Shown: piece after piece, positions 14,709 to 37,136 of the stretch
How positions within the stretch are numbered: the first letter of the stretch is position 1
Layout of the letters: the number at the start of each line of letters is the position of its first letter
Source of the DNA: a virus
Length of the DNA: 39,970 bases
UHGV virus genome: UHGV-0404708
Direction: 5' to 3' (one strand)
Notes under the pieces: model-generated
What the model was told of the DNA's origin: nothing
Databases searched by the model: none
Seen by the model: the letters and a program-made list of their open reading frames with translations, nothing else
Position numbers and translations under genes: made by a program

Positions 14709-14723
14709 TTACCCTTGAGGTAA
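14709..14723. promoter_or_regulatory. operator-like palindrome TTACC-N5-GGTAA
   Basis: TTACCCTTGAGGTAA, exact; upstream of 14018..14650. Confidence 0.5.
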
Positions 14724-14760
14724 TAGTACGCTATTCACCCCCAGTCTGCAATCTGTACAG

Positions 14761-14787
14761 AATTATTTAAAGGCACATCCCTGTGCC
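14761..14787 (-). terminator. possible weak terminator between accessory genes
   Basis: Minus sense GGCACA-GGGA-TGTGCC followed by TTTAAATAATT; interrupted T-run. Confidence 0.35.
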
Positions 14788-14795
14788 GCCGCCCG

Positions 14796-15515
14796 TCAGA
14801 AGAACCCTGCCTTGTCGTTGATGTACTCCGCGTGCGTCTGGATATCACGCAGGCATTTGCTCACACCGACGATGTAGCAGAACATGGTGGTCAGCTCCGC
14901 CGCCGCGCCCGATACGTCGTGCCCGTCGTCCTGTAACTGGTTCAGCAGATTCATCAGCAGTGAGTTCTCAGTCAGGCCGAGAACACCAGACGGGGAATGA
15001 ATCAGGCTGCGGTAGCCGGGCTTCAGCGGGGCACTGTATTCTTTTTTGTCTTCCAGCTTGATCGCCTCCATAATGGCGGGCATGAATTTTTCAATTACCT
15101 GAGTGGCCTTTGATAAATCAGCTCCACCTGAGAGACGAACATCTCCACTGACATTTGCGGGTTTTCTGTCGAAGTAGCAATCTTCCAGTTTTTCGAAGAC
15201 CTCCCACGCTTTTTCAGTCTCAAGAATTTTCGCATGTCGTGCTGCACCGCGAGCGGTCCATAAGAAAAGATGACTTACTTTTGGTGCAATATTAAGCAAA
15301 CCTCTTTGAGAGGACTCGTTCTTAAATGCTCGTAATTCTTCGCCTGTCAGCTTGAAACAATGTTTTCCCTCAATGAATCGATCTGCATTTCGTTGATAGT
15401 TTTGACGAATCAGTTTGGGTTCTGTGTCATACAAATCAGCAAGCATTTCTGTAGTCATTACAGGGATGTTGCAATGAGTTGTTATCGGCAACTTATCAAT
15501 AGCTATATTACGCAT
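14796..15515 (-). CDS. ORF6N-domain protein with C-terminal domain paralogous to 16329..16586 (antirepressor-like)
   Basis: Track ORF 14796..15530; ATG 15515 preferred (SD GGAGG, 8-nt overlap with upstream stop); N-terminus fits the ORF6N/KilA-N-type DNA-binding pattern; C-terminal ~60 aa align with the 85-aa protein. Confidence 0.65.
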   Translation of the reverse strand: MRNIAIDKLPITTHCNIPVMTTEMLADLYDTEPKLIRQNYQRNADRFIEGKHCFKLTGEELRAFKNESSQRGLLNIAPKVSHLFLWTARGAARHAKILETEKAWEVFEKLEDCYFDRKPANVSGDVRLSGGADLSKATQVIEKFMPAIMEAIKLEDKKEYSAPLKPGYRSLIHSPSGVLGLTENSLLMNLLNQLQDDGHDVSGAAAELTTMFCYIVGVSKCLRDIQTHAEYINDKAGFF

Positions 15516-16014
15516 TTTCATTGCCTCCATCTTTCACGACGAAATAGCAATTATCTTTATAATCTAACTGGATGAACTTTATGTTTTCAGGGAGTTTTAC
15601 AGAAAGAGTTTTTGCACAAGCAAAACCAAAATCTGCGCCAGAAGCATCCATATACCTTAATAATTGTTTTAATGCTGAAGGAGAAAAAGTATCTACCTTC
15701 ACCTCAACAGGGTAACCATCTTTTGTTTTTAGGTCTGGTTGACCTGGTCCACCAAGTATTTCAGCGTTAAGGTATTTTGCTATTTCTGGATAAGCGTTGT
15801 ATTCAGAGCGTAGTTTTGCCTTGTTATCGACTGCTAGTTGCATAAGATGATCAAACAAATTGGTATCTAAATCTGCCCCTTCATCCCACATTCTATTTCT
15901 ACAGCTAATCAATTCACTGACCAGAGGTGCACTTTCTTGCCTTAGCATAAGAAGGAGTGGAGAATTAGAAATTAACCAATACAGATCGTCGTTTGAGATT
16001 TTTTGGCCTGGCAT
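15508..16014 (-). CDS. hypothetical protein, possible PD-(D/E)xK-like motif
   Basis: 168 aa; SD AGAGGT 7 nt before ATG; segment GQPDL...YPVEVK resembles a D...E-x-K nuclease motif (weak); translationally coupled to next gene. Confidence 0.6.
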   Translation of the reverse strand: MPGQKISNDDLYWLISNSPLLLMLRQESAPLVSELISCRNRMWDEGADLDTNLFDHLMQLAVDNKAKLRSEYNAYPEIAKYLNAEILGGPGQPDLKTKDGYPVEVKVDTFSPSALKQLLRYMDASGADFGFACAKTLSVKLPENIKFIQLDYKDNCYFVVKDGGNENA

Positions 16015-16328
16015 AGCGATACCTCTACTAGTAAGTTACCCACCACCGCAACGCCAATTGCTGGTGGTGAACTGGACAAGGTTGGCGTACCGGCCTAGTA
16101 GGTACCGGCGCACCTTTCGGTGCCCCTGCCCAGCCCACCATAATTCGGATATGACTGTGCTATACGCATAAAAAAACCACGTCTGGCGTGGTATGCGCCT
16201 ACTAGTAATCCGGGACGCCAATCCCGGCACTGGATTTTGCCAGTGCCCGATTACTATGGCACAAGAGGAGTGCGATGTAAATTTACCGCAAAGGTAAATA
16301 TAAGCACTCCACTTGGTAATTGCAAACC
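16015..16328 (-). ncRNA. heavily structured intergenic element (candidate ncRNA or cis-regulatory leader)
   Basis: 314 nt without convincing ORF between two minus-strand genes; at least five stem-loops, two with identical hexaloop, one GNRA-type loop, an internal hairpin plus T7 run, 8-bp direct repeat GTACCGGC x2. Confidence 0.35.
16170..16192 (-). terminator. intrinsic terminator-like hairpin inside the structured element
   Basis: Minus sense ACCACG-CCAGA-CGTGGT followed by TTTTTTT; T-tract itself flanked by complementary CGCATA/TATGCG. Confidence 0.4.
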
Positions 16329-16586
16329 TTATATGGTTTGTTTTCGTAATTGTTCGGCACAATAGTCGAGATGTGTTTGCAGATCCCGCATAGACATCTG
16401 TGAGCTGGTGACGTAGTTAATCAGTGCAGTCAGTTCGGCAAGTGGGCCATCGACATTAAATCCATCCTTATCGAGATCCCGGAGTAATTTCATCAAGTGC
16501 GATCCCTCCACCAGTGACCTGACGCCTCCCGGCGTGTGAATCCTTTCGGTAAATCCGTCTTCCAGTGGATAGTGATACCGCTGCAT
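16329..16586 (-). CDS. small protein (85 aa), paralog of the C-terminal domain of 14796..15515; LexA-controlled
   Basis: Track ORF 16329..16604 (TTG); ATG 16586 with SD GGAG 8 nt upstream; LexA box and sigma70-like promoter immediately upstream. Confidence 0.65.
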   Translation of the reverse strand: MQRYHYPLEDGFTERIHTPGGVRSLVEGSHLMKLLRDLDKDGFNVDGPLAELTALINYVTSSQMSMRDLQTHLDYCAEQLRKQTI

Positions 16587-16607
16587 CTTATCATCTCCAT
16601 GCAATAA

Positions 16608-16623
16608 CTGTATAAATATACAG
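16608..16623. promoter_or_regulatory. LexA (SOS) box
   Basis: CTGTATAAATATACAG; 20-mer AACTGTATAAATATACAGTA matches the E. coli consensus TACTGTATATATATACAGTA at 18/20. Confidence 0.8.
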
Positions 16624-16632
16624 TACCAAATA

Positions 16633-16661
16633 ATTTATTGTCTATCCAGCACGTTTTGCAA
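16633..16661 (-). promoter_or_regulatory. sigma70-like promoter upstream of the LexA box
   Basis: Minus sense -35 TTGCAA (16656-16661), 17-nt spacer, -10 ATAAAT (16633-16638); LexA box starts about 9 nt downstream of -10. Confidence 0.5.
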
Positions 16662-16662
16662 A

Positions 16663-16677
16663 TCACCTGAAAGGTAA
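16663..16677. promoter_or_regulatory. operator-like palindrome (one mismatch)
   Basis: TCACCTGAAAGGTAA; abuts the -35 of the LexA-controlled promoter. Confidence 0.4.
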
Positions 16678-16705
16678 TATCTATTCGTGTCCATGCTGTT
16701 TTTAC

Positions 16706-16715
16706 CCATATATGG
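16706..16715. promoter_or_regulatory. CCATATATGG palindrome (CCAYATRTGG family)
   Basis: Perfect 10-bp palindrome with T-rich flank, about 65 bp upstream of tail fiber ATG. Confidence 0.35.
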
Positions 16716-16781
16716 TTTTTCAGGTAATAAAATAACCCAGCATGCGGCGCAACGGGTGCTGCGACTATCTGGAGATTTAAA

Positions 16782-18803
16782 ATGACGGTCTCAACCGAAG
16801 TTGGCCACAACGAATACACTGGTAACGGCGTTACGACTACATTCCCTTATACATTCAGGGTTTTCGATAAATCTGATCTGGTAGTGCAGATAGTTGACCT
16901 TGAAGAGAATATCACTGTCCTGGTTCTTGATACCGATTACTCAGTAACCGGGGTGGGGGGATACAATGGTGGCAATGTAATGCTGAGGACAGCGTTAACT
17001 TCTGGTTATCGTATTTTTGTATCGCGTGAGCTGCCTGTTACGCAGGAAACAGATCTGCGCAATCAGGGAAAGTTTCTGGCAGAGGTGCATGAGGATGCAT
17101 TTGATAAGCTGACGATGCTTATTCAGCAAGTATTTTATAACCTGAGCAAGGTAATAAAAGTTCCTGAATCAGGGAACTGGTTGGTTCCAACAATTAGGTT
17201 AAGAAAGAATAAAATCTTTGCATGGGACGAAGAGGGAAATCCAATTGCTGTATCACCTGAATCAGGTAGTGCCTCCGATGTAATGATTGAGCTGGCAAAA
17301 TCATCCGGGGCTGGGTTGATTGGCACAACGTCGGGGGGGACCGTTCAATCAGTGCTGGATGACTGTCATGCAAGGCTCATCACATGTGAGCGCAACAGCC
17401 GGGTGGAAAATTTTTACACGCTGGCGGAAACCTGCACAGCGGAGCTTTTATCGCTGAATGCCCCGGAGGCATATGACAAATCCATTACGCTGACGGTCAA
17501 TGAGGAACTGACCACAGACTATACCGGTCCGGTCACAGGTCATTGCAGCATCGGTAATCCGCAGAACTACACCATTGCGATGTGTACGAGCACAACTCTG
17601 GAATATCAGGTTTCCTCGGTGGTACTGGAGAGTGACGGCACGTTCAGTTTCGCCAGAAGCTGGACGGGGGCTAAGTCTTTTAAACTGTATCGTACATCAA
17701 ATAACGGTCTGGTAACCGTCTGGGAAGATCCGCTGTGTATACGTTCTTACCGGATGCCATCGGATGCCGGAGACGAAACGGTAAGGGTAATGAAAGACCG
17801 TACGTACACCTACGACCAGGCGGTGTCGGCCATTGCCCTGATGGCGCAGGGGCACAGTCAGACTGAGCGTTTTGTTCGCGGGTTGTGTGCGATTGTGGGT
17901 AGTGGTGGTAGCGAGGGGAGTGTGCCTTTTTTCGTGAACCGCATGTCAGCGCAGACATCGTCACAGTATTACCGGACGGGAAACGCAGCGTGGGTGGCGT
18001 ATGCGCTGGCGTATTATCTGCTGAAATATCCGGACGGTGAAATGGCCGTTGTTGCCCGGGATAAACTGACGCAGTGCGCAGAATGGATTGAAACGTTCAG
18101 AGTGGCAGACAACGGAGATATTCGTTATGGGTTGTATACATCCGGTAGCGGACGGTATCTGGATGGCGTCTTTTACCCTGATTTTAAAGCAGACTGGTGC
18201 ACATCGGAGCACCAGTTTGATTTGTGGTTTCTGTTTGACCTGATGGGGCGGGTGGGCTTCACCGGCTACGCTGAAAAGGCGAAAGCCCTGGCGGATGCCA
18301 TTATGGAAAAGCTGTGGGTGGAGGATGAAGGGCGATTTTATGCCGGGATGCGAACCACCGGGCCTGACAAGGCCTCACCACTGGACTGTGCAAGCTGGGG
18401 CGGGCTGTTTGTGTCCAATATCGATATGGAAAAAGCCCGGCGGTGTTTTACTTACCTGGACAGATTCTGGTACGCCACGCACGATGCGACAGGGTACACG
18501 CCTTATCATCCGGAATATGGCTACCCGAATAAACAGCGGGGAGTCTGGGTGGAGGGCAGTGCAGGCGTGGCATTGCTGGCCCGTAGACTGGGAGATGATG
18601 CCACCGCGATGGATATTCTGGCGAGGCTGGCACCACTGCGCACACGTTATGGTTACATTGATTCAAGCGATTATCCAGATAATGATGACATGCCGCCGTG
18701 GCCCTCTTCCTGCAACACGGCCTGGATGATACTGGCATGCGATCCGCAGGGGTTCTGGAACGTTGGGGTAAGTAGTCTGTCTGGACGTTATTATAGGTAT
18801 TGA
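16782..18803 (+). CDS. tail fiber/tailspike with T7-type N-terminal attachment domain and a distinct C-terminal domain
   Basis: 673 aa; N-terminus (YTGNGVTTTFPYTF...DTDY) follows the T7 gp17 N-domain pattern; C-terminal ~380 aa Trp/Tyr-rich. Confidence 0.75.
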   Translation: MTVSTEVGHNEYTGNGVTTTFPYTFRVFDKSDLVVQIVDLEENITVLVLDTDYSVTGVGGYNGGNVMLRTALTSGYRIFVSRELPVTQETDLRNQGKFLAEVHEDAFDKLTMLIQQVFYNLSKVIKVPESGNWLVPTIRLRKNKIFAWDEEGNPIAVSPESGSASDVMIELAKSSGAGLIGTTSGGTVQSVLDDCHARLITCERNSRVENFYTLAETCTAELLSLNAPEAYDKSITLTVNEELTTDYTGPVTGHCSIGNPQNYTIAMCTSTTLEYQVSSVVLESDGTFSFARSWTGAKSFKLYRTSNNGLVTVWEDPLCIRSYRMPSDAGDETVRVMKDRTYTYDQAVSAIALMAQGHSQTERFVRGLCAIVGSGGSEGSVPFFVNRMSAQTSSQYYRTGNAAWVAYALAYYLLKYPDGEMAVVARDKLTQCAEWIETFRVADNGDIRYGLYTSGSGRYLDGVFYPDFKADWCTSEHQFDLWFLFDLMGRVGFTGYAEKAKALADAIMEKLWVEDEGRFYAGMRTTGPDKASPLDCASWGGLFVSNIDMEKARRCFTYLDRFWYATHDATGYTPYHPEYGYPNKQRGVWVEGSAGVALLARRLGDDATAMDILARLAPLRTRYGYIDSSDYPDNDDMPPWPSSCNTAWMILACDPQGFWNVGVSSLSGRYYRY

Positions 18804-18826
18804 TTCCTGATAAAGTAATAATTTAA

Positions 18827-18836
18827 CCACATATGG
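18827..18836. promoter_or_regulatory. CCACATATGG motif (CCAYATRTGG family)
   Basis: Within a ~25-bp block nearly identical, in inverted orientation, to 37171-37200; upstream of lysis genes. Confidence 0.35.
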
Positions 18837-18899
18837 TTTATTGTGTATGATGAACTCATCAATAAGTGGGTTCTTCATGCACATTAAACGGTGGTTTTT

Positions 18900-19304
18900 A
18901 TGTCAGTTCAGCTAACCAGTGAGTCTTTAAATCAGTGGCTTAGTGCGAGTTCTCTTGTTGCGGTGATAGCAGGGGTTCCTCCAGAGGTGGCTTTGGGAGC
19001 TTTGGCTGGGGCGGTAATTTTTGTTACCTCAGCCATCGAGTATCCCATTCATCGCCGGGTTCTCCTGTCTATGCTCAGCTTCCTCTGCGGCCTTCTCTTT
19101 TACAAACCTACAGCATCCATCCTTATCGGTGTAGCCAGCCTGATCCCTACCATCACGCATGACTCTTTCGAGAAAGGGATCGTCTTCTCTGCTGGCGCAT
19201 TTGTGTCGTCAATTGTCGCCGTGCGAATTGGTATATGGCTTTATCACCGTTCCGATAATCCACGAGAGTTAATTCCGGGGAGAAAAGACGATGGTAACGC
19301 ATGA
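18900..19304 (+). CDS. holin-like multi-pass membrane protein
   Basis: Track ORF 18891..19304 (GTG); ATG 18900 preferred; 3-4 hydrophobic helices; first gene of lysis cassette. Confidence 0.5.
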   Translation: MSVQLTSESLNQWLSASSLVAVIAGVPPEVALGALAGAVIFVTSAIEYPIHRRVLLSMLSFLCGLLFYKPTASILIGVASLIPTITHDSFEKGIVFSAGAFVSSIVAVRIGIWLYHRSDNPRELIPGRKDDGNA

Positions 19305-19599
19305 CCTTTTTTTACTTATCACCAATGCAGTTATTTGTACTGGCATAGCAATTCGCGTTGTCACATTCCGGCGTAACGGCTCTCAACATCGAAGATGGGG
19401 AGGGTGGCTTGCTTATTTCCTTATTGTTGCTGCGGCCAGTATTCCTGTTCGTGTCGTCTATGCAATCTGGTTACGCACGCCAATGGCTGTGGATTTATCT
19501 GAGGTCATTATCAACGCTGTCATGCTTGCTGCGGTTATTAAAACGCGCGGTAACGTCGTTCAGATTTTCAAAATAACGAGGTCTAAACATGGAGATTAA
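19291..19599 (+). CDS. holin/antiholin-like membrane protein
   Basis: 102 aa, three hydrophobic segments; between membrane protein and endolysin. Confidence 0.5.
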
Positions 19600-20218
19600 A
19601 CAATTCCAGCGAGCTGCTGGTATTAGCGAGGCGCTGGCCGCTCGCTGGTTCTCGCATATAACTTCTGCGATGAAAGAGTTTGGTATCAGCAAAGCAGAAG
19701 ATCAGGCAATGTTTATTGCTCAAGTCGGGCATGAGTCTGGGGGCTTCACCCGGTTGCAGGAAAATTTCAACTACAGCGTCAGCGGACTGGCTAACTTCGT
19801 TCGGGCTGGGCGTCTCACTCAGGGACAGGCTAATGCACTTGGTCGCCGTGCTGGTGAATCACCATTGCCACTCGAGCGCCAGAGAGCGATCGCCAATCTG
19901 GTGTACAGCAAACGCATGGGGAACAATGCCTCTGGTGATGGCTGGAATTACCGTGGCCGCGGACTTATCCAGATTACCGGTTTGAATAACTATCGTGATT
20001 GCGGAAACGGCCTGAAAGTGGACCTGCTGGAGAATCCTGAACTGCTGGCGCAGGACGAATATGCGGCTCGTAGCGCGGCGTGGTTTTTCTCCAGCAAAGG
20101 CTGCATGAAGTATTCCGGAGATATTGTACGTGTAACTCTGATTATCAATGGTGGCAGGAACGGCATCGACGACCGGCGCGCGCGTTACATCACTGCCAGT
20201 AAGGTGCTGGCGGTATGA
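19589..20218 (+). CDS. endolysin, glycoside hydrolase family 19 (chitinase-like) type
   Basis: Motifs [12 protein letters not shown] and [11 protein letters not shown] typical of GH19-type phage endolysins. Confidence 0.85.
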
Positions 20219-20697
20219 TCTGGGCATTCGTAAAAGCATACTGGAAACAGTTGGTTATCATAGCGATCCTTGCTGTTCTGGTCATGTCAGGAGTTGTAGC
20301 CTGGAATGCACACGGCAGTCGTCAGTACGACGCCGGGTATGCGCAGGCGAAAGAAGACCGCAAAGCCGAAGAAGAAAAAGTTCGTCAGCACTACGAACAG
20401 GAGAAAGCGACTAATGAACGTGAAGCGCAGCAGAGGATCGATCAGGCGCGCAGCGATGCTCTTGATGCTGCCGCTCGCGCTGGCAGGTTGCAGCAACAGC
20501 TCGTTGCCATCCGTGAGCAGCTCAGGCAGTATAACGCCATTGTCGGCGCTGGGGCGTCAGCCGCAGATACCGGAGTTTTGCTTGCCGACGTGTTCAGCAA
20601 ATCTCTCGAGAGAAATAGACAACTGGCAGAGTATGCTGACCGGGCAGCCGAAGCCGGAAGAGTCTGCGAAAAACAGTACGACACCCTGACCAGATAG
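20215..20697 (+). CDS. i-spanin (Rz-like)
   Basis: 160 aa; N-terminal TM helix then charged coiled-coil region; ATGA overlap with endolysin stop. Confidence 0.7.
20414..20689 (+). CDS. o-spanin (Rz1-like lipoprotein) embedded in the +1 frame of the i-spanin gene
   Basis: In track ORF 20306..20689; ATG 20414 (alt 20456) gives signal peptide with lipobox LAGC, then Pro/Ser-rich short mature protein. Confidence 0.65.
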   Translation: MNVKRSRGSIRRAAMLLMLPLALAGCSNSSLPSVSSSGSITPLSALGRQPQIPEFCLPTCSANLSREIDNWQSMLTGQPKPEESAKNSTTP

Positions 20698-20870
20698 CAT
20701 GGCATTTTTCATGGTACTGATTTTCGGTGACGGTATATAAAACGGTATGGTGAAAATCAAGTTGCGGAAAGTTGTTATCAGTCAATTGGTTATGTATGTC
20801 GTAAATAATTGAGTGGGAATGATTAACAGCTAACTCATAGCAAATCATTCCTATTCAGATGCCAACTCAA

Positions 20871-20900
20871 CCCTCTGTTTTTGCAGAGGGTTTTTGTTTT
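20871..20900 (+). terminator. rho-independent terminator after lysis cassette
   Basis: CCCTCTG-loop-CAGAGGG followed by TTTTTGTTTT. Confidence 0.75.
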
Positions 20901-20957
20901 TATGTATTCATTTCTATTCACTCTACACCATATTTTTCGGCGGTACAGGTGACGGTA

Positions 20958-20972
20958 TTACCTTAAAGGTAT
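20958..20972. promoter_or_regulatory. operator-like palindrome (one mismatch)
   Basis: TTACCTTAAAGGTAT, about 45 bp upstream of integrase start. Confidence 0.4.
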
Positions 20973-21014
20973 ACTCTCATACCGTCATGAAAATGGTTTC
21001 TATACGGGTGAATT

Positions 21015-26485: not shown

Positions 26486-26500
26486 TTACCGTTGAGGTAA
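26486..26500. promoter_or_regulatory. operator (OL-like), TTACC-N5-GGTAA
   Basis: TTACCGTTGAGGTAA exact; overlaps predicted start region of leftward promoter. Confidence 0.6.
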
Positions 26501-26547: not shown

Positions 26548-26562
26548 TTACCCGTCAGGTAA
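26548..26562. promoter_or_regulatory. operator (OL-like), TTACC-N5-GGTAA
   Basis: TTACCCGTCAGGTAA exact; about 20 bp upstream of the -35. Confidence 0.6.
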
Positions 26563-26619: not shown

Positions 26620-27204
26620 TTATTGTTTGCTTTTTTCGTTCTGGTTGATGACAAATTCAATGTAACTTTCGATCTTTGCTTTCTCGGTTTCGGGTAACAA
26701 TGCGTAGCGCGAGCGGTCATAGTTGATGGTCGCAGGGTCGTGCGGGTGAATCAGTAATTCATAGCCGTGACGCCCGAATGCGGATGCAACATTCTCCAGG
26801 GTGGAAATGGAAACGCTGACCTCATTGTTTAACAGGCGGCTGATTGTCACCTGGGCGACGCCGGATGCGCGGTGAAGTTTTCCCTGCGTTGAAAGGTCGC
26901 GGCTTTCGCTCATCCAGCGTTCCAGGTTGTGAGCCGCCAGCTGACCAATGTCGCTTGGGCCGACAGGCTGAAAACCTTCCTGAGAAAGCGAGCGATCGAT
27001 ATCAAGCCAGTTACGGGGTTTATTGGCGGCAGCTTCAATTTTTCGTGCAACCTGGTCGCCGATAACCTTCTTGCCAAGAGCCCAGCGGTTTACCAGATTT
27101 GCCTGAGTTCCAAGTTTTTCTGCCATCCGCGTCTGAACACCATTGAATTCACGGTCGATCAAGTCGTTGAGATTTTGCCTGCGGACGTCCTGGATACTTT
27201 TCAT
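26620..27204 (-). CDS. immunity repressor with two HTH-type segments, no autopeptidase domain
   Basis: 194 aa; HTH-like segments near aa 24-46 and 120-155; divergent from Cro-like gene across operator region; no Ala-Gly...Ser...Lys LexA-type cleavage module. Confidence 0.7.
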   Translation of the reverse strand: MKSIQDVRRQNLNDLIDREFNGVQTRMAEKLGTQANLVNRWALGKKVIGDQVARKIEAAANKPRNWLDIDRSLSQEGFQPVGPSDIGQLAAHNLERWMSESRDLSTQGKLHRASGVAQVTISRLLNNEVSVSISTLENVASAFGRHGYELLIHPHDPATINYDRSRYALLPETEKAKIESYIEFVINQNEKSKQ

Positions 27205-27259
27205 TTTCTGGAAAATCGCCTCATATATGAATCAGTAGATGATTCAATTTAAAGCAATA

Positions 27260-27274
27260 TTACCCAACAGGTAA
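27260..27274. promoter_or_regulatory. operator O1 (OR-like)
   Basis: TTACCCAACAGGTAA exact. Confidence 0.6.
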
Positions 27275-27276
27275 AT

Positions 27277-27291
27277 GCACCTCATGGGTAA
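27277..27291. promoter_or_regulatory. operator O2 (OR-like, one mismatch)
   Basis: GCACCTCATGGGTAA; centre 17 bp from O1. Confidence 0.5.
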
Positions 27292-27307
27292 CTATTCTTG
27301 ATTTTTG

Positions 27308-27322
27308 TTACCTTATGGGTGA
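27308..27322. promoter_or_regulatory. operator O3 (OR-like, one mismatch)
   Basis: TTACCTTATGGGTGA; in spacer of the predicted rightward promoter (-35 TTGTTA 27305-27310, -10 TATTAT 27328-27333). Confidence 0.5.
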
Positions 27323-27358: not shown

Positions 27359-27589
27359 ATGAGCGATAACGGACATTTCGATTTCAAAAAGCACTGGCTT
27401 GCACTTACTCCGGATGAGCGTGAAGCCTTCGCACAGGAAGCCGGAACGACGAGTCACTATATCCAGACTCACTTAACAGGTAAGCGCAAAATGCCAGGTA
27501 AAGTATTGATGAATGGGCTTTTTAAAGCCTGTAAAACAAGACAATGGCTGCGCTCAAAAGCAGAACTGGCATACTTCTTCTACTCATGA
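27359..27589 (+). CDS. Cro/YdaS-like small DNA-binding protein
   Basis: 76 aa, divergent from repressor across tripartite operator; followed by terminator. Confidence 0.6.
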   Translation: MSDNGHFDFKKHWLALTPDEREAFAQEAGTTSHYIQTHLTGKRKMPGKVLMNGLFKACKTRQWLRSKAELAYFFYS

Positions 27590-27644: not shown

Positions 27645-27659
27645 GTACCTCAAAGGTAA
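27645..27659. promoter_or_regulatory. operator-like palindrome (one mismatch)
   Basis: GTACCTCAAAGGTAA just after the terminator. Confidence 0.4.
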
Positions 27660-27739
27660 TAAAAAACCAAATCTGGTTGATCTTTTTTTTGTGTCAGCAC
27701 AAAATGACCGTAATCCCAATACTAATAACAGGGCTTACC

Positions 27740-29583: not shown

Positions 29584-29598
29584 TTACCTATAAGGTAA
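29584..29598. promoter_or_regulatory. operator-like palindrome
   Basis: TTACCTATAAGGTAA exact. Confidence 0.5.
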
Positions 29599-29645: not shown

Positions 29646-29660
29646 TTACCTTAGAGGTAA
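29646..29660. promoter_or_regulatory. operator-like palindrome overlapping the SD of 29664..30008
   Basis: TTACCTTAGAGGTAA exact; right half-site doubles as GAGGT Shine-Dalgarno 3 nt before ATG. Confidence 0.45.
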
Positions 29661-30008: not shown

Positions 30009-30069
30009 ATCGACGATCTTTTTAGTTATCAATGTAATCAATAAGTTATGTGGATAAGCGAGGGTAAAG

Positions 30070-30630: not shown

Positions 30631-31259
30631 ACAAGATTGACTATCAGGCACTGCGTGAGGCGGCAGAGCGTGCAATTCCGGCAATGGAACGCCTGTTAAT
30701 GTTGCCAGTTGATGATGATCTGATAAGCGAGCAGGAACTTAAAGATAGCGGTGTTGATATTGATGCGCTCAACGCCTTCAAAATTCTGGCCGGACCAGAA
30801 ACCGTGCTGGCGCTACTGGATGAACGGGAAAGAAACCAGCAATACATCAAATCTCGCGACCAGGAGAACGATGATATTGCGCTAACGGTAGGGAAGCTGT
30901 TAATCGAAAACGGTCAGCTTGTTGCCGATACGCTACGCCACTTAGCTGATAACGAAATCGACTCTGATTATTTTGCTATCACCTCAACTAATGAGAACGG
31001 TACTGAAATTGATCATGAGATGTCTATTACCGATTACGCACTGCAAGCTGCCGGAACTGTAGACGAATTGGTTGCGGCGCTGGAATCCGCAGAGAAGCGC
31101 ATTGCAGAACTGGAAGCGCGGGAAATACTGCTCCCGGTACGTAGCAGCATGCTTCATCGAACAGATTTTCACGATGATTACCAAACGGTAATGGCATACA
31201 AAGTTTCTGAAGTCATCGATGCAATCCGCGCTACTGGCATTCGCATCAAAGGAGAGTGA
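30627..31259 (+). CDS. hypothetical protein ending in junction motif GIRIKGE
   Basis: 210 aa; C-terminus encoded by repeated junction sequence. Confidence 0.55.
   Translation: MNKIDYQALREAAERAIPAMERLLMLPVDDDLISEQELKDSGVDIDALNAFKILAGPETVLALLDERERNQQYIKSRDQENDDIALTVGKLLIENGQLVADTLRHLADNEIDSDYFAITSTNENGTEIDHEMSITDYALQAAGTVDELVAALESAEKRIAELEAREILLPVRSSMLHRTDFHDDYQTVMAYKVSEVIDAIRATGIRIKGE
31236..31259. repeat. module-junction repeat, copy 1
   Basis: GGCATTCGCATCAAAGGAGAGTGA: last codons plus stop of upstream gene and SD of next. Confidence 0.8.
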
Positions 31260-31264
31260 GTGAT

Positions 31265-31462
31265 ATGGATAAAAACACCACTGCTTACTGGAATCTGTCA
31301 CTTGATACCGAATGCCCCAAATGTGGTCACAATTTCGATCTGCTCTGTGATGCTGATTTCTGGGAGTTTTCTGGAGCAAAACAGGCATGTGAAGAAATAA
31401 AAGGTTACGAAACATGCTGCCCAGAATGTAACCATGAATTTAAAACAGATTTTGTGTATTGA
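31265..31462 (+). CDS. small zinc-ribbon protein
   Basis: Track ORF 31256..31462 (GTG); ATG 31265; two CxxC pairs (CPKCGH...CCPECNH). Confidence 0.5.
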   Translation: MDKNTTAYWNLSLDTECPKCGHNFDLLCDADFWEFSGAKQACEEIKGYETCCPECNHEFKTDFVY

Positions 31463-31472
31463 GGCATAACGA

Positions 31473-31943
31473 ATGACCACTTTTACTAAAGAACAATTAA
31501 TTGATCATATTAATGATCGCAAAGATGTCCGTCAGAGAATGTTGGAAACTGCGACGATTTCTTCTGGATTCAGAGAATATCTTGAAAGAGAGCTTGCTAC
31601 CGATCAGATTGCCCTAGCTTCGCTGGAAGCAGAACCGATGGCATGGCGATATCGCTACGTGAAAAAAAGCATTACGGACTCACAGGGGGAGCCGTGGGTT
31701 GGTGACTGGAAATATGTACCGACAAAAGAGGATTGCAACGACAGACCGAACTATGAAATTCAGGCGTTATTCACTGCCCCGCCTGTGCCACTGACACCAG
31801 AAGGATTGATTAAAGCAGTGCGCTTCTATGAACAGGTTAAGCGTGAAAATCCGCCAGTCGAAACCGGAGTATGGAAAGACGCTGTTGACTGGGTGCTCAA
31901 AGAGGCTTGCCAGGCTGTAAACATTGGCATCAAAGGAGAGTGA
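31473..31943 (+). CDS. hypothetical protein, N-terminal paralog of 32592..33176
   Basis: 156 aa; shares MTT(F/I)TK start and IALASLEA(E/K)P motif with 32592..33176; ends in junction motif. Confidence 0.55.
   Translation: MTTFTKEQLIDHINDRKDVRQRMLETATISSGFREYLERELATDQIALASLEAEPMAWRYRYVKKSITDSQGEPWVGDWKYVPTKEDCNDRPNYEIQALFTAPPVPLTPEGLIKAVRFYEQVKRENPPVETGVWKDAVDWVLKEACQAVNIGIKGE
31922..31943. repeat. module-junction repeat, copy 2
   Basis: CATTGGCATCAAAGGAGAGTGA, 21/22 identical to copies 1 and 3. Confidence 0.8.
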
Positions 31944-31945
31944 GA

Positions 31946-32437
31946 GTGCAGATTTCACCGGTTACTCTTCGTGTTGCGAAGGCGTTTATATCCAGACATC
32001 ACCGACACAATAAACCCCCGGTGGGGCATAAATTCAGCATTGGTCTGAGAAATGATGCCGGAGAATTGATAGGTGTGGCGACAGCCGGTAGACCTGTTGC
32101 ACGACATTTGGACGATGGATTAACGCTTGAAGTAAATCGCACATGTACCACAGGAGAACGCAACGCTAACAGCGCGCTTTATGGTGCTGTCTGGCGGGCA
32201 GCAAAAGCTATGGGTTATCAACGTTGTATTACGTACACCCAGGCAGATGAATCAGGAGCATCTCTTCGCGCAGCTGGTTTTGTTCGTGTGAAAGAGCTTC
32301 CTCCAAGAAAAAGCTGGGCGGAATCAAGCGTCGCCTTGCGGAGTAAACGCGATCCGGTCGGAAACGGTGGTGTTCCTCGTGTGCTCTGGGAAATCAGGAG
32401 AATGAGTACCACTGGCATTCGCATCAAAGGAGAGTGA
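31946..32437 (+). CDS. hypothetical protein (possible acyltransferase-like), ends in junction motif
   Basis: Track ORF 31907..32437 overlaps upstream gene; GTG 31946 just after the upstream stop with junction SD 7 nt before. Confidence 0.5.
   Translation: MQISPVTLRVAKAFISRHHRHNKPPVGHKFSIGLRNDAGELIGVATAGRPVARHLDDGLTLEVNRTCTTGERNANSALYGAVWRAAKAMGYQRCITYTQADESGASLRAAGFVRVKELPPRKSWAESSVALRSKRDPVGNGGVPRVLWEIRRMSTTGIRIKGE
32414..32437. repeat. module-junction repeat, copy 3
   Basis: GGCATTCGCATCAAAGGAGAGTGA identical to copy 1. Confidence 0.8.
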
Positions 32438-32438
32438 T

Positions 32439-32588
32439 ATGGCTAAGTACATCGTGACTATCGAAGGATTTAATGATTGCAAGGTTGTTGAGTTTGAAGC
32501 AGACACGCCAGAGGATGCCGAAGAAATAGGCAGAGACATATTCTATGAAGAATGCAACTACGGCGTATCACCTGCTACAGAGGACTAA
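32439..32588 (+). CDS. small hypothetical protein (49 aa)
   Basis: Not in track; ATG 32439 with junction-repeat SD GGAGAG 6 nt upstream; translation MAKYIVTIEGFNDCKVVEF... Confidence 0.4.
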   Translation: MAKYIVTIEGFNDCKVVEFEADTPEDAEEIGRDIFYEECNYGVSPATED

Positions 32589-32591
32589 CAC

Positions 32592-33176
32592 ATGACCACT
32601 ATTACCAAAGGGCGACTGCTGACAATCAAGCAGTGGCGCGAAACATACGGACCGGGTAGCAACGTTGTACTGCCAGCAGAAGAAGCGGAAGAACTGGCAC
32701 GAATTGCTCTGGCATCGCTCGAAGCAAAACCAATAGGTGCATTCCACATTGCAGAACAGCAAGTTGACGGCACAAGTGACTACCTCAAGGATGGAGAATG
32801 GCCTATTGATAATGGGACAATTGAAGTATACGCCGCCCCTCCAGTGCCAGTAGTACCGGAAGAAAAACCAATGCCTAATCCTCTTAGCATGTACGCGGTT
32901 GATGCTGTTGCCGCTATTGCAGAGGTGAGAGGCTGGAACGCCTGTCGTGCCGCTATGCTTCAGAGTCAAGGTAATTGCATTAAGGATGGTTGGATAAGCT
33001 GTAGTGAGCGAATGCCCGCTCAAGATGATTGGATTTTAATTTATTCAAAGCACGGTGAGTATATGGCAGGACAGGTGCAAGGGGAATACGTGGAGTTGAG
33101 CGATGGCACTTTATCGTGGTTAGGGAACGCCTTGTTCTGGATGCAGCTACCAGAACCGCCGCAGGAGGTGAAGTGA
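32592..33176 (+). CDS. hypothetical protein with DUF551-like C-terminal domain
   Basis: 194 aa; N-terminus paralogous to 31473..31943; C-terminus W..CSERMP...WMQLPEPP pattern. Confidence 0.55.
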   Translation: MTTITKGRLLTIKQWRETYGPGSNVVLPAEEAEELARIALASLEAKPIGAFHIAEQQVDGTSDYLKDGEWPIDNGTIEVYAAPPVPVVPEEKPMPNPLSMYAVDAVAAIAEVRGWNACRAAMLQSQGNCIKDGWISCSERMPAQDDWILIYSKHGEYMAGQVQGEYVELSDGTLSWLGNALFWMQLPEPPQEVK

Positions 33177-33544
33177 TGGACTATTCACAGTTAAGTGATT
33201 TTGAAATTAACAGAATGGTAGGAGACATAATTTTTAAAGGCCTTTGGGCGTGTAAACCGGAAACATCAGGGAATAACACCAACAAATGGTATTACGGAAA
33301 TACTGATACAACTTTTGAGCCATTAAACCCTTTACCTGACTACTGCAATGATCCGAGAGCTGCATGGCCTGTAATCGCAAAACATCAGATCAGCATATGT
33401 GCATACGAAAGAAATAATCATGGAATGAAGAATGAATATTGGTGGGAGGCGGATAGATTTTGTGAATTTATTACCATAGACAATAACCCACTACGCGCCG
33501 CCATGATTGTCTTTCTCATGATGCAGGAAAATCAGAATGGCTAA
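33176..33544 (+). CDS. hypothetical protein
   Basis: Track ORF 33116..33544; ATG 33176 overlaps upstream stop (TGATG). Confidence 0.5.
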   Translation: MDYSQLSDFEINRMVGDIIFKGLWACKPETSGNNTNKWYYGNTDTTFEPLNPLPDYCNDPRAAWPVIAKHQISICAYERNNHGMKNEYWWEADRFCEFITIDNNPLRAAMIVFLMMQENQNG

Positions 33545-33875
33545 ATCAGCAGCAGAGCGCAAAGCCGCTCAGAGAGCCAGACAAGCTGCATCTGGTGTGC
33601 GTAAGCTGGAGATTGTGCTTGATGCTCAGGAAATTGAAATGCTGGAGCGTAACTGTGCCACGCGTCGCCCCGGGCGTGCGCCTTACGAATTTGGTGAGTA
33701 TATAGCGTTACTGATCCGCCAGGATGATGCACGCGTGCACGGGCGTATAAAATCTATCAGCAGAAAACGTTGCGGTAAGTGTGGCGAGAGAGTTCCAGTT
33801 AATTCATGTCCGTGTAATGGTGACTCACAATGCTGGGTGACTAAAGGCTGGCATGAAACGAAATTAATAGTGTGA
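33537..33875 (+). CDS. Arg-rich, Cys-cluster protein (candidate late-gene regulator)
   Basis: 112 aa; basic N-terminus, C-terminal CGKCGERVPVNSCPCNG; last gene before terminase operon; stop codon inside GTGACATGTCAC palindrome. Confidence 0.45.
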   Translation: MAKSAAERKAAQRARQAASGVRKLEIVLDAQEIEMLERNCATRRPGRAPYEFGEYIALLIRQDDARVHGRIKSISRKRCGKCGERVPVNSCPCNGDSQCWVTKGWHETKLIV

Positions 33876-33883
33876 CATGTCAC
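33872..33883. repeat. GTGACATGTCAC palindrome, copy 2
   Basis: Perfect 12-bp palindrome containing the TGA stop of 33537..33875, same register as copy 1. Confidence 0.8.
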
Positions 33884-33924
33884 GAGTAGATTATGCATGA
33901 TGAATTTGATGGGTTTTGAATACT

Positions 33925-33950
33925 GCCGCCAACTATGGCGGCTTTATTTT
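33925..33950 (+). terminator. rho-independent terminator before terminase operon
   Basis: GCCGCC-AACTAT-GGCGGC followed by TTTATTTT. Confidence 0.7.
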
Positions 33951-33961
33951 GCATGGTACTA

Positions 33962-33976
33962 TTACCACAACGGTAA
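33962..33976. promoter_or_regulatory. operator-like palindrome upstream of terminase genes
   Basis: TTACCACAACGGTAA exact; a weaker copy TTACCACGGTGGTTA follows at 33980-33994. Confidence 0.5.
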
Positions 33977-33993
33977 CTATTACCACGGTGGTT

Positions 33994-34590
33994 ATGATGC
34001 CTGCTGAACCTAAAACCTATAAACGCAAATCAACGCAATTTAAGCCACTAACAGCAATGCAGGAGGCTTATTGCCAGTCATACATCAAAACGCCTGAAAA
34101 CCAGACTCAGGCAGCGATTAACGCAGGATTTTCCCCAAATACAGCGGCAGTTAAAGCCAGTGTCATGATGCGCGATGAACGCATTCAAAAACGGATTGCC
34201 GAGTTGATGGAGGAGCGCAACAAACGAATACGCGTCAGTGCTGATTACGTTCTCATGCGGCTGGTGGAGATCGACCAGATGGACGTGATTGATATCCTCA
34301 ACGACGATGGGAGCCTTAAGCCAATCCGCGAGTGGCCGAAAATCTGGCGCACTACGCTTAGCGGCTTTGATCTGTCATCGACCATCATGAACATGAACGA
34401 GGATTCGATAGAGACAATCCTCAAAAAAATTAAATGGCCTGACAAGGTGAAGAACCTCGAACTGATTGGTAAGCACGTCGACGTCAACGCATTCAAAGAA
34501 CGCCTAGATGTTAATGTGAATGTGACAATTGCTGATCGCATAGCAGCAGCCAGGAAGCGACTCAAAGAACGTCAGGATGGTAATCAGTGA
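33994..34590 (+). CDS. terS: terminase small subunit
   Basis: Track ORF 33916..34590; ATG 33994/33997; small-terminase-like composition; stop overlaps terL start. Confidence 0.7.
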   Translation: MMPAEPKTYKRKSTQFKPLTAMQEAYCQSYIKTPENQTQAAINAGFSPNTAAVKASVMMRDERIQKRIAELMEERNKRIRVSADYVLMRLVEIDQMDVIDILNDDGSLKPIREWPKIWRTTLSGFDLSSTIMNMNEDSIETILKKIKWPDKVKNLELIGKHVDVNAFKERLDVNVNVTIADRIAAARKRLKERQDGNQ

Positions 34591-36062
34591 CAGATACAGT
34601 GTTATCTCCTGAAGAGCAGTTGATCGAGGATATTGCAGGGTTTACTCACGATCCGCTTGGTTATGCCATCTATGCGTTCCCGTGGGGGGAAGAGGGGACT
34701 GAACTGGCACATGCTACTGGCCCACGTCAGTGGCAGGCTGATGCGTTCCGAGAGATACGTGATCACCTGCAGAATCCAGAGACGCGCTATCAGCCGCTTA
34801 TGCTGGCACGCGCTTCTGGTCACGGTATTGGTAAATCCGCATTCATTTCAATGCTGATCAACTGGGGCATGTCCACTTGCGAGGATTGTAAGGTCGTGGT
34901 GACCGCCAACACCGACAACCAGCTACGAACGAAGACCTGGCCGGAAATTATCAAGTGGTCGAACCTTGCTATCACGAAAGACTGGTTTACCTGTACCGCT
35001 ACCGCGATGTACAGCAATGACCCTGGGCACGACAAGCGGTGGCGAGCTGACGCAATCCCCTGGTCTGAGCACAACACTGAGGCATTCGCCGGACTACACA
35101 ACGAGCGCAAACGCATCATCGTGGTATTCGATGAAGCGTCGAACATTGCGGATCTGGTGTGGGAAGTTGCTGAGGGGGCGCTTACGGACGAAGACACTGA
35201 GATTATCTGGGTGGCGTTCGGAAACCCTACACGTAACACCGGACGTTTCCGCGAATGTTTCCGCAAATATAAACACCGCTGGAAAACTGCGCAGATTGAC
35301 AGCCGAACGGTGGAAGGCACTAACAAACAGCAGTTGCAGAAATGGGTTGATGACTACGGGGAAGACAGCGACTTCGTTAAAATCCGTGTGCGCGGCATAT
35401 TCCCTGATGCATCTGAATTGCAGTTTATCCCTACCGGTCTTACTGATGAGGCAATGAAACGGGTGGTAACCGCTGCGCAGGTGGCGCATGCTCCGGTGAT
35501 AATCGGCGTTGACCCGGCATACTCCGGCGTTGATGACGCTGTGATATACCTGCGGCAGGGGCTGCACAGTAAGGTGCTATGGACTGGCAACAAGACCACT
35601 GACGATCTGATTATGGCGAAGCGTATCGCTGACTTTGAAGACCAGTACCAGGCTGACGCGGTGTTCATCGACTTCGGTTACGGAACCGGTCTGAAGTCAA
35701 TCGGTGACGGATGGGGTCGTACATGGCAACTTGTTCCGTTCGGTGGCGCGTCTACTGACCCGCAGATGCTCAACAAGCGTGGGGAGATGTTCAATTCATG
35801 CAAGACATGGCTGAGGCTGGGCGGCATGCTGGATGACCAGGAAACAGCAGACGACCTGTCGGCGGCAGAGTACAAAGTTCGAGTGGATGGTAAAATCGTT
35901 ATCGAACCGAAGGAAGATATCAAGGAGCGGCTTGGGCGTTCGCCGGGTAAAGGCGATGCGCTACTGCTGACGTTTGCGTTCCCTGTGTCTAAGCGTCTGC
36001 GAATTCCCGGGCAGCAGAACCAGCAAGGCAAGGCCATCACAGATTACGATCCCTATGCTTAA
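34587..36062 (+). CDS. terL: terminase large subunit
   Basis: 491 aa, GTG start overlapping terS stop; Walker A-like GHGIGKS; nuclease-type C-terminal half. Confidence 0.9.
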   Translation: MTDTVLSPEEQLIEDIAGFTHDPLGYAIYAFPWGEEGTELAHATGPRQWQADAFREIRDHLQNPETRYQPLMLARASGHGIGKSAFISMLINWGMSTCEDCKVVVTANTDNQLRTKTWPEIIKWSNLAITKDWFTCTATAMYSNDPGHDKRWRADAIPWSEHNTEAFAGLHNERKRIIVVFDEASNIADLVWEVAEGALTDEDTEIIWVAFGNPTRNTGRFRECFRKYKHRWKTAQIDSRTVEGTNKQQLQKWVDDYGEDSDFVKIRVRGIFPDASELQFIPTGLTDEAMKRVVTAAQVAHAPVIIGVDPAYSGVDDAVIYLRQGLHSKVLWTGNKTTDDLIMAKRIADFEDQYQADAVFIDFGYGTGLKSIGDGWGRTWQLVPFGGASTDPQMLNKRGEMFNSCKTWLRLGGMLDDQETADDLSAAEYKVRVDGKIVIEPKEDIKERLGRSPGKGDALLLTFAFPVSKRLRIPGQQNQQGKAITDYDPYA

Positions 36063-36112
36063 TCCGCTGGTTGGGATAATGTCGTTGATATCCTCTGATG
36101 AGGATAAAACAA

Positions 36113-36139
36113 AGCCAGCTCATCGGCTGGCTGTTTGTG
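36113..36139. terminator. bidirectional terminator-like hairpin
   Basis: AGCCAGC-loop-GCTGGCT with GTTTGTG on plus side and TTGTTTTA on minus side; between convergent terL and 36153..36524. Confidence 0.5.
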
Positions 36140-36148
36140 ACATGTCAC
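36137..36148. repeat. GTGACATGTCAC palindrome, copy 3
   Basis: Perfect 12-bp palindrome 5 nt beyond the stop of minus-strand gene 36153..36524, adjacent to terminator hairpin. Confidence 0.8.
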
Positions 36149-36152
36149 GGTG

Positions 36153-36524
36153 TTATTGCTCGCTTAGCTTCTGCTTCAGCAAGTAACCTTCGAGCATCCA
36201 GATTTTGTTTACAGCATTCTGCCGGGCAATCTTCCGACCAATTTCTGCATCAAAGTTTTCCGGGCTTGCACAGGCGCTCTCTCCGGTGACGGTGAAGCCG
36301 TTGCGCAGCACCAGGACGCAGAACGTCAGCAGAGAAAGTGATTCGTGCGGCTGGTAGTTTACCTCCCCGCCAGTATGTTTCGCTTTTATGGCTTTGCCAA
36401 AGGCACCATCTTCTGCTGTGAAATATGCCTCCTGAGCAATAATGCCTTCGATATGGTCTGGCGTAACGCGCGGTGCCGTTTTGCCTTTCTCAACGATTTC
36501 TTTTTCGATTTGCTGGTCGTTCAT
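36153..36524 (-). CDS. hypothetical protein (N4 Gp49/Sf6 gene 66-like small phage protein)
   Basis: 123 aa; SD AAGGTGAG before ATG; family call from memory, weak. Confidence 0.5.
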   Translation of the reverse strand: MNDQQIEKEIVEKGKTAPRVTPDHIEGIIAQEAYFTAEDGAFGKAIKAKHTGGEVNYQPHESLSLLTFCVLVLRNGFTVTGESACASPENFDAEIGRKIARQNAVNKIWMLEGYLLKQKLSEQ

Positions 36525-36535
36525 AATCTCACCTT

Positions 36536-36559
36536 AAAAAAATGCCCGGCGAACCGGGC
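36536..36559 (-). terminator. rho-independent terminator downstream of tRNA
   Basis: Minus sense GCCCGG-TTCG-CCGGGC followed by T7-8. Confidence 0.7.
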
Positions 36560-36722
36560 GAACTGGAAGCAATGAGTTATGCCTTCCGTGGCTGTACTGG
36601 TTTACAGCATGAAGTCATCGCAATGGCGTCCTGCTGTAAAAAGGGTGGTGGTAGTCCTTCAAGGGAAACCATCACCGCCAAGCCCCTGGAACTTCTGGCA
36701 TCACGGTCCTTAGGCGTGATTC

Positions 36723-36799
36723 TGGCGTGGCATGCAGGATTCGAACCTGCGACCAACCGCTTAGAAGGCGGTTGCTCTGTCTAACTGAGCTAATGCCAC
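36723..36799 (-). tRNA. tRNA-Arg (anticodon UCU)
   Basis: Minus-strand read GTGGCATTAGCTCAGTTAGACAGAGCAACCGCCTTCTAAGCGGTTGGTCGCAGGTTCGAATCCTGCATGCCACGCCA folds as cloverleaf: 7-bp acceptor, GCTC/GAGC D-stem, ACCGC/GCGGT anticodon stem with loop CU-UCU-AA, GCAGG/CCUGC T-stem with TTCGAAT loop, encoded CCA. Confidence 0.9.
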
Positions 36800-37121
36800 A
36801 ACGCTGAGAGCACTTAGCCTGTTAAGGCGCCACACTTTGTCGCGGCTCCATAAATGCTCTCATCGTTGTACCCTCGTCTCTTCCGAGGCGTCACACCGAA
36901 TCGCCGGGATGGTGAATCCCCGTGCGCGGAATAAAACCGCTCGACTTGCACATTCCGGCTACCTGGTTCGTTTGCCCGAGAAAGGGAGGGTGCCCCTTAA
37001 ACGTATCCAGACCGCTATCGGCGCATGTGCCATACGCCGTACTGCTCAAAATAAAAGCTCACTCCACCTGTTCAATTTAACGACAAGCCAGTCAGGTTAG
37101 TAACCGGAATGAGCTCCTTAG

Positions 37122-37136
37122 TTACCTGAAAGGTAA
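37122..37136. promoter_or_regulatory. operator-like palindrome
   Basis: TTACCTGAAAGGTAA exact; intergenic between tRNA and portal operon. Confidence 0.5.

Follow-up and report, generated by a model that had tools for sequence, protein, structure and literature searches.

Dispersed TTACC-N5-GGTAA palindromes as probable operators of the Rep repressor in the Uetakevirus-type genome UHGV-0404708

We performed a detailed analysis of a short palindrome, TTACC-N5-GGTAA, which is dispersed through the virus genome UHGV-0404708 (39,970 nt; the whole stretch is referred to below as the window). This analysis revealed 15 sites, which are very likely to be operators of the phage's own repressor, Rep, predicted from the sequence to act on nearly every lytic promoter. 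The motif, its dispersal and its assignment to a repressor are already known, as they are public in the annotation of epsilon15, the reference phage of the genus Uetakevirus; since the same sites have been annotated at the same positions in epsilon15, the finding is correct but ordinary. The window shares 96-98% identity with the Escherichia coli phages PH444, PAS61, ZX5, phiv142-3, HEMP4 and TL-2011b over 65-74% of an 18-kb stretch, and 97% identity with phiV10 over 50% of the same stretch. Three of these phages (ZX5, phiv142-3 and phiV10) have been classified or described as Uetakevirus. The window begins and ends within one head protease gene and its attP core (ATTGAGTGGGAATGATT; 20808-20824) is intact; these features identify it as the complete and circularly permuted genome of a Uetakevirus of the phiV10/epsilon15 type.

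The window was scanned for TTACC-N5-GGTAA with mismatch tolerance, using dinucleotide shuffles as a control. Nine exact sites were found (starting at positions 14709, 16283, 26486, 26548, 27260, 29584, 29646, 33962 and 37122), compared with 0.01 expected, and none of 100 shuffles reached this number. At a tolerance of up to one mismatch, 15 matches were obtained versus 0.70 expected, and 0.0035 exact sites were expected when the non-coding DNA was shuffled alone. A chance origin of the sites is ruled out by both types of shuffle. The original prediction of at least eight exact and five one-mismatch sites, enriched far beyond chance, thus holds, although it was an undercount: two sites had been overlooked (16283, exact; 33980, one mismatch), and the sequence at 27277 (GCACCTCATGGGTAA), given there as a one-mismatch site, contains two mismatches.

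A curated gene map, based on the list of open reading frames (ORFs), Pfam and PHROG matches and synteny, leaves 7.9% of the window as non-protein-coding DNA. This small fraction contains all nine exact sites (the probability of such placement by position alone is approx. 1e-10), five of the six one-mismatch matches, and the site at 27277. The remaining one-mismatch match (17969) falls within the tailspike gene and is probably due to chance, while none of the 28 two-mismatch matches in the coding DNA of the window stands out. The operator set (n=15) therefore consists of nine exact, five non-coding one-mismatch and one two-mismatch site, spread over 11 separate non-coding regions, and 11 of the 12 non-coding gaps of at least 110 bp hold a site. 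The full scan did not reveal an equal density in coding sequence, which bears out the claim that the sites are intergenic. The putative operators, with the predicted promoters that they accompany, are as follows:

14709-14723, exact; adjoins the -10 of a leftward promoter (TTGCAG-17-TACTAT)
16283-16297, exact; adjoins the -10 of a leftward promoter (TTGCAA-17-TATATT; 16325-16297)
16663-16677, one mismatch; in the divergent ant/tailspike region
20958-20972, one mismatch (GGTAT), weak candidate; 49 bp upstream of the int start, in the attP P' arm
26486-26500, exact, OL proximal operator; adjoins the -10 of the leftward promoter PL (TTGACA-17-AATTAT)
26548-26562, exact, OL distal operator; 62 bp from the proximal one and 19 bp upstream of the PL -35
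27260-27274, exact, OR operator 1; on the rep-proximal side
27277-27291, two mismatches, OR operator 2; 17 bp from operator 1
27308-27322, one mismatch, OR operator 3; overlaps the core of PR (TTGTTA-17-TATTAT or TTGATT-17-GAATAT)
27645-27659, one mismatch; just past the terminator of the cro-like gene, 17 bp upstream of TTGATC-17-CAAAAT
29584-29598, exact, post-replication distal operator; immediately after a terminator
29646-29660, exact, post-replication proximal operator; adjoins the -10 of TTGATT-17-TTTAAT, 62 bp from the distal one
33962-33976, exact, terS operator a; adjoins an extended -10 (TGgTACTAT), downstream of a terminator (33925-33942)
33980-33994, one mismatch, terS operator b; 18 bp from operator a, overlaps the ribosome-binding region and adjoins the terS ATG
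37122-37136, exact, gp3/portal operator; first conserved element of a highly conserved leader/promoter region, with no clear sigma-70 core over the site

An unbiased scan of every 5-mer half-site with spacers of 0-12 nt was carried out on four genomes (the window, epsilon15, SPC32H and Kp4865-1). TTACC-N5-GGTAA was the most enriched palindrome of its form in all of them, and N5 was the only spacing to be enriched. Other half-site spacings were rejected for lack of enrichment, and a lone TTACC-N16-GGTAA, close to the tailspike promoter, is peculiar to the window. When 40 exact sites from the four genomes were combined into a symmetrised profile, an extended 17-bp consensus was obtained, ATTACC-NNWNN-GGTAAT, whose half-sites are spaced one helical turn apart and whose centre is always A/T. 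The OL/OR sites and the dispersed sites share identical half-sites and the same extended consensus.

The motif is strongly enriched in all six Uetakevirus genomes searched, with exact sites numbering 11 in epsilon15, 10 in both SPC32H and Kp4865-1, and nine in both Enterobacter phage Tyrion and Klebsiella phage BUCT711, in addition to those of the window. Tyrion, BUCT711 and SPC32H contain 13-18 matches with up to one mismatch (15 in Tyrion and 13 in BUCT711) versus approx. 0.5 expected, mostly in syntenic places. The RefSeq record of epsilon15 (NC_004775) contains seven protein_bind features labelled "repressor / lysogeny", with the sequence (A)TTACC-N5-GGTAAT. These are located (i) before terS, (ii) before gp3/portal, (iii) in the gap between gp19 (ant) and the tail fibre gene, (iv) downstream of the repressor gene (three sites) and (v) past the replication genes, and they correspond to window sites 33962, 37122, 16663, 26486/26548 and 29584. 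In coordinates, epsilon15 12-27 is equivalent to 33962, 2931-2947 to 37122, and 19895-19911 to 16663. In the 15-kb stretch retrieved from the phiV10 record, terminators are the only regulatory features, and the sites therefore appear to be unannotated in this lineage, although the motif family as such was known before. An operator precedes the lysis genes in epsilon15, SPC32H and Tyrion, and epsilon15 and Tyrion carry leftward genes between the tail fibre gene and the lysis genes; the window has no operator there, its lysis genes coming immediately after the tailspike gene.

At least eight of the sites lie on or adjoin the cores of predicted promoters. Five operators (26486, 29646, 33962, 16283 and 14709) begin at the last T of a -10 hexamer, and a protein bound there would therefore cover the start site. 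Two of these promoters, PL and the post-replication one, are each preceded by a further operator, which is located 19 bp before the -35 and at a distance of exactly 62 bp from the -10-proximal site. The spacing within such pairs is 62-63 bp in all four genomes measured, and in alignments of five genomes the half-sites, the -35, the -10 and the 62-bp spacing are invariant, with diverging flanks. Operator 29646 includes the Shine-Dalgarno sequence GAGG and ends 3 nt before the ATG of a DUF1064 gene; this post-replication cassette has been kept across phages although the gene downstream varies. As originally proposed, the sites flank the repressor gene in the manner of OL (26486/26548) and OR (27260-27322), and the 17-bp pair within OR is common to epsilon15, SPC32H and Kp4865-1. 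Syntenic copies were also found for site 27645 (Tyrion and BUCT711) and for the terS doublet (epsilon15 and Tyrion). The predicted promoter at 14709 would serve an accessory gene (14018-14662; phrog_1349; 214 amino acids [aa]).

Two features of these regions differ from the dispersed motif or from its arrangement in the window. The first is a third OL operator in epsilon15, SPC32H and BUCT711, located 76 bp downstream of the PL-proximal one, past a conserved hairpin, and directly preceding the ribosome-binding site of the first gene (L002 32479-32494; L003 33528-33542; an equivalent in L005); this segment has been deleted in the window and in Tyrion. The second is a 19-bp perfect palindrome, TGAATCA-N5-TGATTCA (27229-27247), in the stretch that separates OR operator 1 from the start codon of rep. 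Another regulator of rep expression might bind there; in epsilon15, the equivalent place carries an annotated integration host factor (IHF) site.

Not every site need act by covering a promoter. Operators 37122, 27645, 29584 and 26548, together with the third OL site of the Salmonella phages, might instead be roadblocks against transcriptional read-through, which would be true stoperator behaviour; we consider this unlikely, yet it is the strongest of the alternatives. Sites 27645, 29584 and 33962 are situated 10-20 bp downstream of intrinsic terminators, the third OL operator of epsilon15, SPC32H and BUCT711 follows a hairpin just before the first gene, and no convincing core promoter lies over 37122. 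However, as perfect palindromes, the sites have no direction with respect to transcription, and none is placed inside an operon between genes. Moreover, the majority of the sites that follow terminators have a promoter-proximal partner at a distance of exactly 62 bp, which indicates paired binding rather than a roadblock.

The probable binder of the sites is encoded between OL and OR:

26620-27204, minus strand; rep, 194 aa, with an N-terminal helix-turn-helix (HTH)

Pfam finds only HTH domains in Rep and no S24 peptidase domain. The protein aligns over its full length with Rep of SPC32H (PDB 5D50_A; E 3.5e-42), its C-terminus covering the dimerisation/tetramerisation region. SPC32H Rep is reported to bind palindromic DNA sites as a tetramer, which is taken apart by the Ant antirepressor (PMC9638917), and to have the domain order DBD-MDD-TetDloop, the C-terminal tetramerisation domain being of a kind associated with the looping of DNA (PMC9986798). 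The Reps of five Uetakevirus phages are 43-78% identical overall (43% between epsilon15 and the window) but have one and the same recognition helix, NLVNRW, and all five genomes carry the motif. A tblastn search of 50,697 phage records identified only one homologue outside Uetakevirus, a Pseudomonas phage cI matching over the N-terminal domain alone; the genome of this phage (PseuP_224) lacks the motif, and its repressor has NYISRC in place of NLVNRW. A scan of IMG/VR with an alignment of the N-terminal domain yielded 80 loci, in each of which this domain is 100% identical. The repressor of ZX5 is 99.5% identical to Rep of the window, and its overexpression lowered the holin and endolysin transcripts by more than 99.9% (PMC9782041).

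Direct control of many promoters beyond OL/OR by one dimeric repressor, which had been put forward earlier, is supported by the flanking OL/OR sites, the operators abutting -10 hexamers and the epsilon15 annotation, as well as by the homology with SPC32H Rep (PMC9638917) and the overexpression of the ZX5 repressor (PMC9782041). On the sequence evidence, Rep is most likely the binder, which formally leaves a small chance to some other genus-wide factor, e.g. a 76-aa cro-like protein:

27359-27589, plus strand; cro-like regulator, 76 aa, phrog_35 'transcriptional repressor'

According to this second alternative, Rep would act at OL/OR only, and the dispersed sites would be bound mainly by another phage dimer, either the cro-like protein or a gp55-type regulator (33537-33875), e.g. 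as a lytic-phase modulator or a late activator. Both proteins occur throughout the genus and have been annotated as regulators, the HTH of the cro-like protein is weakly related to the N-terminal domain of Rep, and in classical switches Cro uses the same operators as the repressor. We nevertheless regard this as improbable. The OL/OR and the dispersed sites share their half-sites and extended consensus, the recognition helix of the cro-like protein (SHYIQTH) is unlike that of Rep (NLVNRW), the annotators of epsilon15 credited the sites to the repressor, and a site that adjoins the -10 and covers +1 has the geometry of repression, not activation.

We give hardly any credence to the idea that the palindromes are RNA or DNA hairpins (terminators or processing sites) or targets of restriction-modification or methylation: although the sites can fold as 5-7 bp hairpins and this phage family encodes DNA methyltransferases, the folds are of low stability (-3.3 to -7.2 kcal/mol, in several cases not exceeding shuffled sequences) and invariably lack a downstream U tract, which led us to reject the RNA hairpin/terminator reading, the invariant stem, free loop sequence and constant A/T centre indicate protein contacts, and placement at promoters only is not expected of restriction or methylation targets.

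Several observations weigh against assigning all of the sites to Rep as simple promoter-covering operators. Firstly, the Rep homologues in the phage collection all come from one genus, save for the match limited to the N-terminal domain, so that comparisons within the genus are unable to distinguish Rep from factors common to all its members, e.g. the cro-like protein or gp55. Secondly, the sites at 37122 (portal), 16663 (tailspike) and 20958 (int) show no clear overlap with a strong sigma-70 core, and simple occlusion is therefore no more than a possibility there. Thirdly, 62 bp of DNA spans approx. 210 Å, compared with approx. 100 Å between the Rep domain pairs (PMC9986798), and bridging of a pair of operators would therefore require strong DNA bending. 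Finally, the assignment of 20958 as a Rep operator is uncertain. This site is embedded in a larger inverted repeat, GACGGTAT-N20-ATACCGTC (20940-20995), within an attP region that is conserved as a whole, and in epsilon15 the annotated integrase arm site ends where the motif copy begins; the window site may therefore reflect integrase arm sites and be, in part or wholly, an Int-binding feature.

The genes predicted to relieve repression by Rep, with their control elements, are the following:

14796-15530, minus strand; second antirepressor, 244 aa, ORF6N N-terminal domain fused to an Ant-like C-terminus
16060-16145, minus strand; C4 antisense RNA (Rfam, 76.7 bits, above the gathering score)
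16170-16246, minus strand; isrK-like small RNA (Rfam, 68.1 bits, above the gathering score)
16329-16586, minus strand; small antirepressor Ant, 85 aa, matching SPC32H Ant (5D50_E) by eye and an anti-repressor PHROG
16608-16623; perfect LexA (SOS) box CTGTATAAATATACAG, over the -10 of the ant promoter

Judging from these features, the window holds two antirepressor modules. The first is the LexA-gated Ant. The LexA box over the ant -10 is conserved in the alignment with epsilon15, SPC32H, Tyrion and BUCT711, and it occupies, next to the -10, the slot filled by a Rep operator at PL and the post-replication promoter. Site 16663 lies approx. 19 bp upstream of the -35 of the ant promoter (P_ant) and within the spacer of a candidate rightward tailspike promoter (TTGCAA-16-TATCTA). 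The "LexA promoter" to which one operator had been ascribed is an inaccurate term, as there is no lexA gene; it is in fact the ant promoter, which carries the perfect LexA box beside 16663. The 214-aa protein encoded at 14018-14662 was rejected as LexA, having no Pfam match and only a PHROG of unknown function.

The second module would be placed under a Rep operator behind regulatory RNAs. Downstream of operator 16283 are, in order, (i) the isrK-like RNA, (ii) the C4-like RNA, (iii) a 168-aa ORF and (iv) the ORF6N::Ant gene, whose product matches SPC32H Ant (5D50_E) over residues 163-239 (E 1e-13). The order operator, isrK, C4 and anti-repressor is the same in Enterobacter phage Tyrion (L004 21171-21407), and the module resembles the isrK locus of Gifsy-1 (PMC4825925).

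Physical binding, looping and promoter activity are what we infer from the arrangement of these elements, and they may be combined in the following model. Rep would be a non-cleavable repressor of the SPC32H type, composed of an N-terminal HTH, a middle dimerisation domain and a C-terminal tetramerisation domain, and each palindrome would be bound by a pair of its N-terminal domains. In a lysogen, Rep would sit directly on the promoters of almost all lytic transcription units, covering the start sites at PL, the post-replication promoter, P_terS, the promoter of the isrK/C4-ant2 operon and that of the accessory gene. A single tetramer could bridge the two operators at PL, and likewise those at the post-replication promoter (62 bp, i.e. 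approx. six turns), clamping the promoter in a small loop, while the three OR sites would control PR and probably also the autoregulation of rep. Induction would proceed without cleavage of Rep: inactivation of LexA by the SOS response would free the ant promoter, and Ant would strip Rep from all operators at once. The second antirepressor operon, repressed by Rep until then, would also be freed and could reinforce the switch.

An extended version of this model can be proposed, although only tentatively. It envisages global repression in one step, with no cascade, in which a single tetramer clamps the key promoters through the 62-bp pairs, and a feed-forward lock, whereby removal of Rep by the LexA-gated Ant would derepress the isrK/C4-gated second antirepressor operon with its Rep operator. 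Throughout the genus, neither the half-sites nor the Rep recognition helix varies, and the phages of E. coli, Salmonella, Enterobacter and Klebsiella would therefore be cross-immune at the level of DNA binding. If this holds true, specificity would rest in the Rep-Ant pairing alone.

On sequence grounds, the window is a member of the Uetakevirus (epsilon15/SPC32H-type) family of Rep operators, and every feature of this family that can be assessed in a sequence is present: the palindrome, a cognate Rep between OL and OR, syntenic sites and a LexA-controlled Ant. With epsilon15 it shares the genus, the 17-bp palindrome, the syntenic dispersed positions, and both the 62-bp and the 17-bp spacings. 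It differs in having two OL sites rather than three, and in the extra sites 14709 and 16283, which are tied to accessory and second-antirepressor genes that epsilon15 lacks. Similarly, SPC32H (PDB 5D50, 5D4Z) encodes Rep and Ant homologues, carries a LexA box over its ant promoter and contains 10 copies of the motif, but its annotation lists one antirepressor gene, whereas the window has in addition the longer ORF6N::Ant behind the isrK/C4-like RNAs.

Outside the genus, the closest functional analogy would appear to be the C1 operators of phage P1, together with its Op51-c4-ant operon. In P1, the C1 repressor acts on many scattered operators, mostly at promoters, one of which controls immI (c4-icd-ant; Op51-c4-ant). 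A comparable layout is found in the window, where operator 16283 and its promoter are followed by isrK/C4 and then ORF6N::Ant. However, C1 is not known to be related to Rep and the P1 operators are asymmetric 17-mers, whereas the window sites are symmetric and primary induction would proceed via the LexA-controlled Ant.

The original prediction described the sites as stoperator-like. This is apt as regards the dispersal of many copies of one repressor site in short non-coding gaps, but not as regards their symmetry and location. The stoperators of Cluster A mycobacteriophages (L5 gp71) are asymmetric, oriented relative to transcription and found inside operons, where they block elongation. The window sites, in contrast, are perfect inverted repeats with no strand sense, and they occur mostly at promoters: five adjoin a -10, and others are located within the spacer of a promoter or precede a -35 by 17-19 bp. 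No site separates co-transcribed genes, and membership of the stoperator class was therefore rejected.

With lambda, the window shares operators flanking the repressor gene, including three OR operators between the divergent repressor and cro-like genes, and by analogy cooperative binding or looping between paired sites is likely. It differs from lambda in that Rep has no S24 autocleavage domain, induction would be driven by an antirepressor, and the operators extend to middle and late promoters; furthermore, the paired sites are 62 bp apart around one promoter, compared with the 2.4-kb OL-OR loop.

The discovery value of these observations is small, as the motif, its dispersal and the repressor assignment are public and crystal structures of this repressor family are available. 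Their practical value is in annotation, namely of the operator classes, the 62-bp pairs, the Rep site and LexA box of the ant promoter, and the presumed Rep-controlled isrK/C4-antirepressor operon. Genomes of the phiV10 type are common as prophages and serve as reporter and typing phages for E. coli O157, and the operator map could guide the engineering of such phages and studies of their induction.

Some other elements were found in the non-coding DNA of the window. The 700-bp non-coding region between the terminase genes and gp3/portal contains a tRNA-Arg gene (anticodon TCT; 36723-36799, minus strand), and the small ORFs at 36542-36784 and 36837-37100 are probably spurious.

A second dispersed perfect palindrome, GTGACATGTCAC, is present in three copies (13724-13735, 33872-33883 and 36137-36148), compared with an estimated 0.002 expected. 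Epsilon15, SPC32H, BUCT711 and Kp4865-1 contain three copies each and Tyrion two, in matching positions where the flanks were inspected. Every copy in the window, epsilon15 and SPC32H is located at the end of an operon beside an intrinsic terminator, and at two of the three positions the palindrome contains the TGA stop codon of the last gene (that of the gp55-type regulator and the last gene of the structural operon). It carries no annotation in epsilon15.

Palindromes of the form AACC-N6-GGTT were detected at 16325-16338, 18825-18838 and 27665-27678 (three versus 0.57 expected), with related CATATGTGGTT-like elements at 16707, 29630 and 37178. All of these are placed in regulatory gaps, at or near the -35 of middle or late promoters (lysis, tailspike, portal and post-replication). 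Conserved copies of the element also accompany the lysis, portal and tail fibre promoters of epsilon15. Its possible roles are those of an activator-binding site or of a specialised promoter element.

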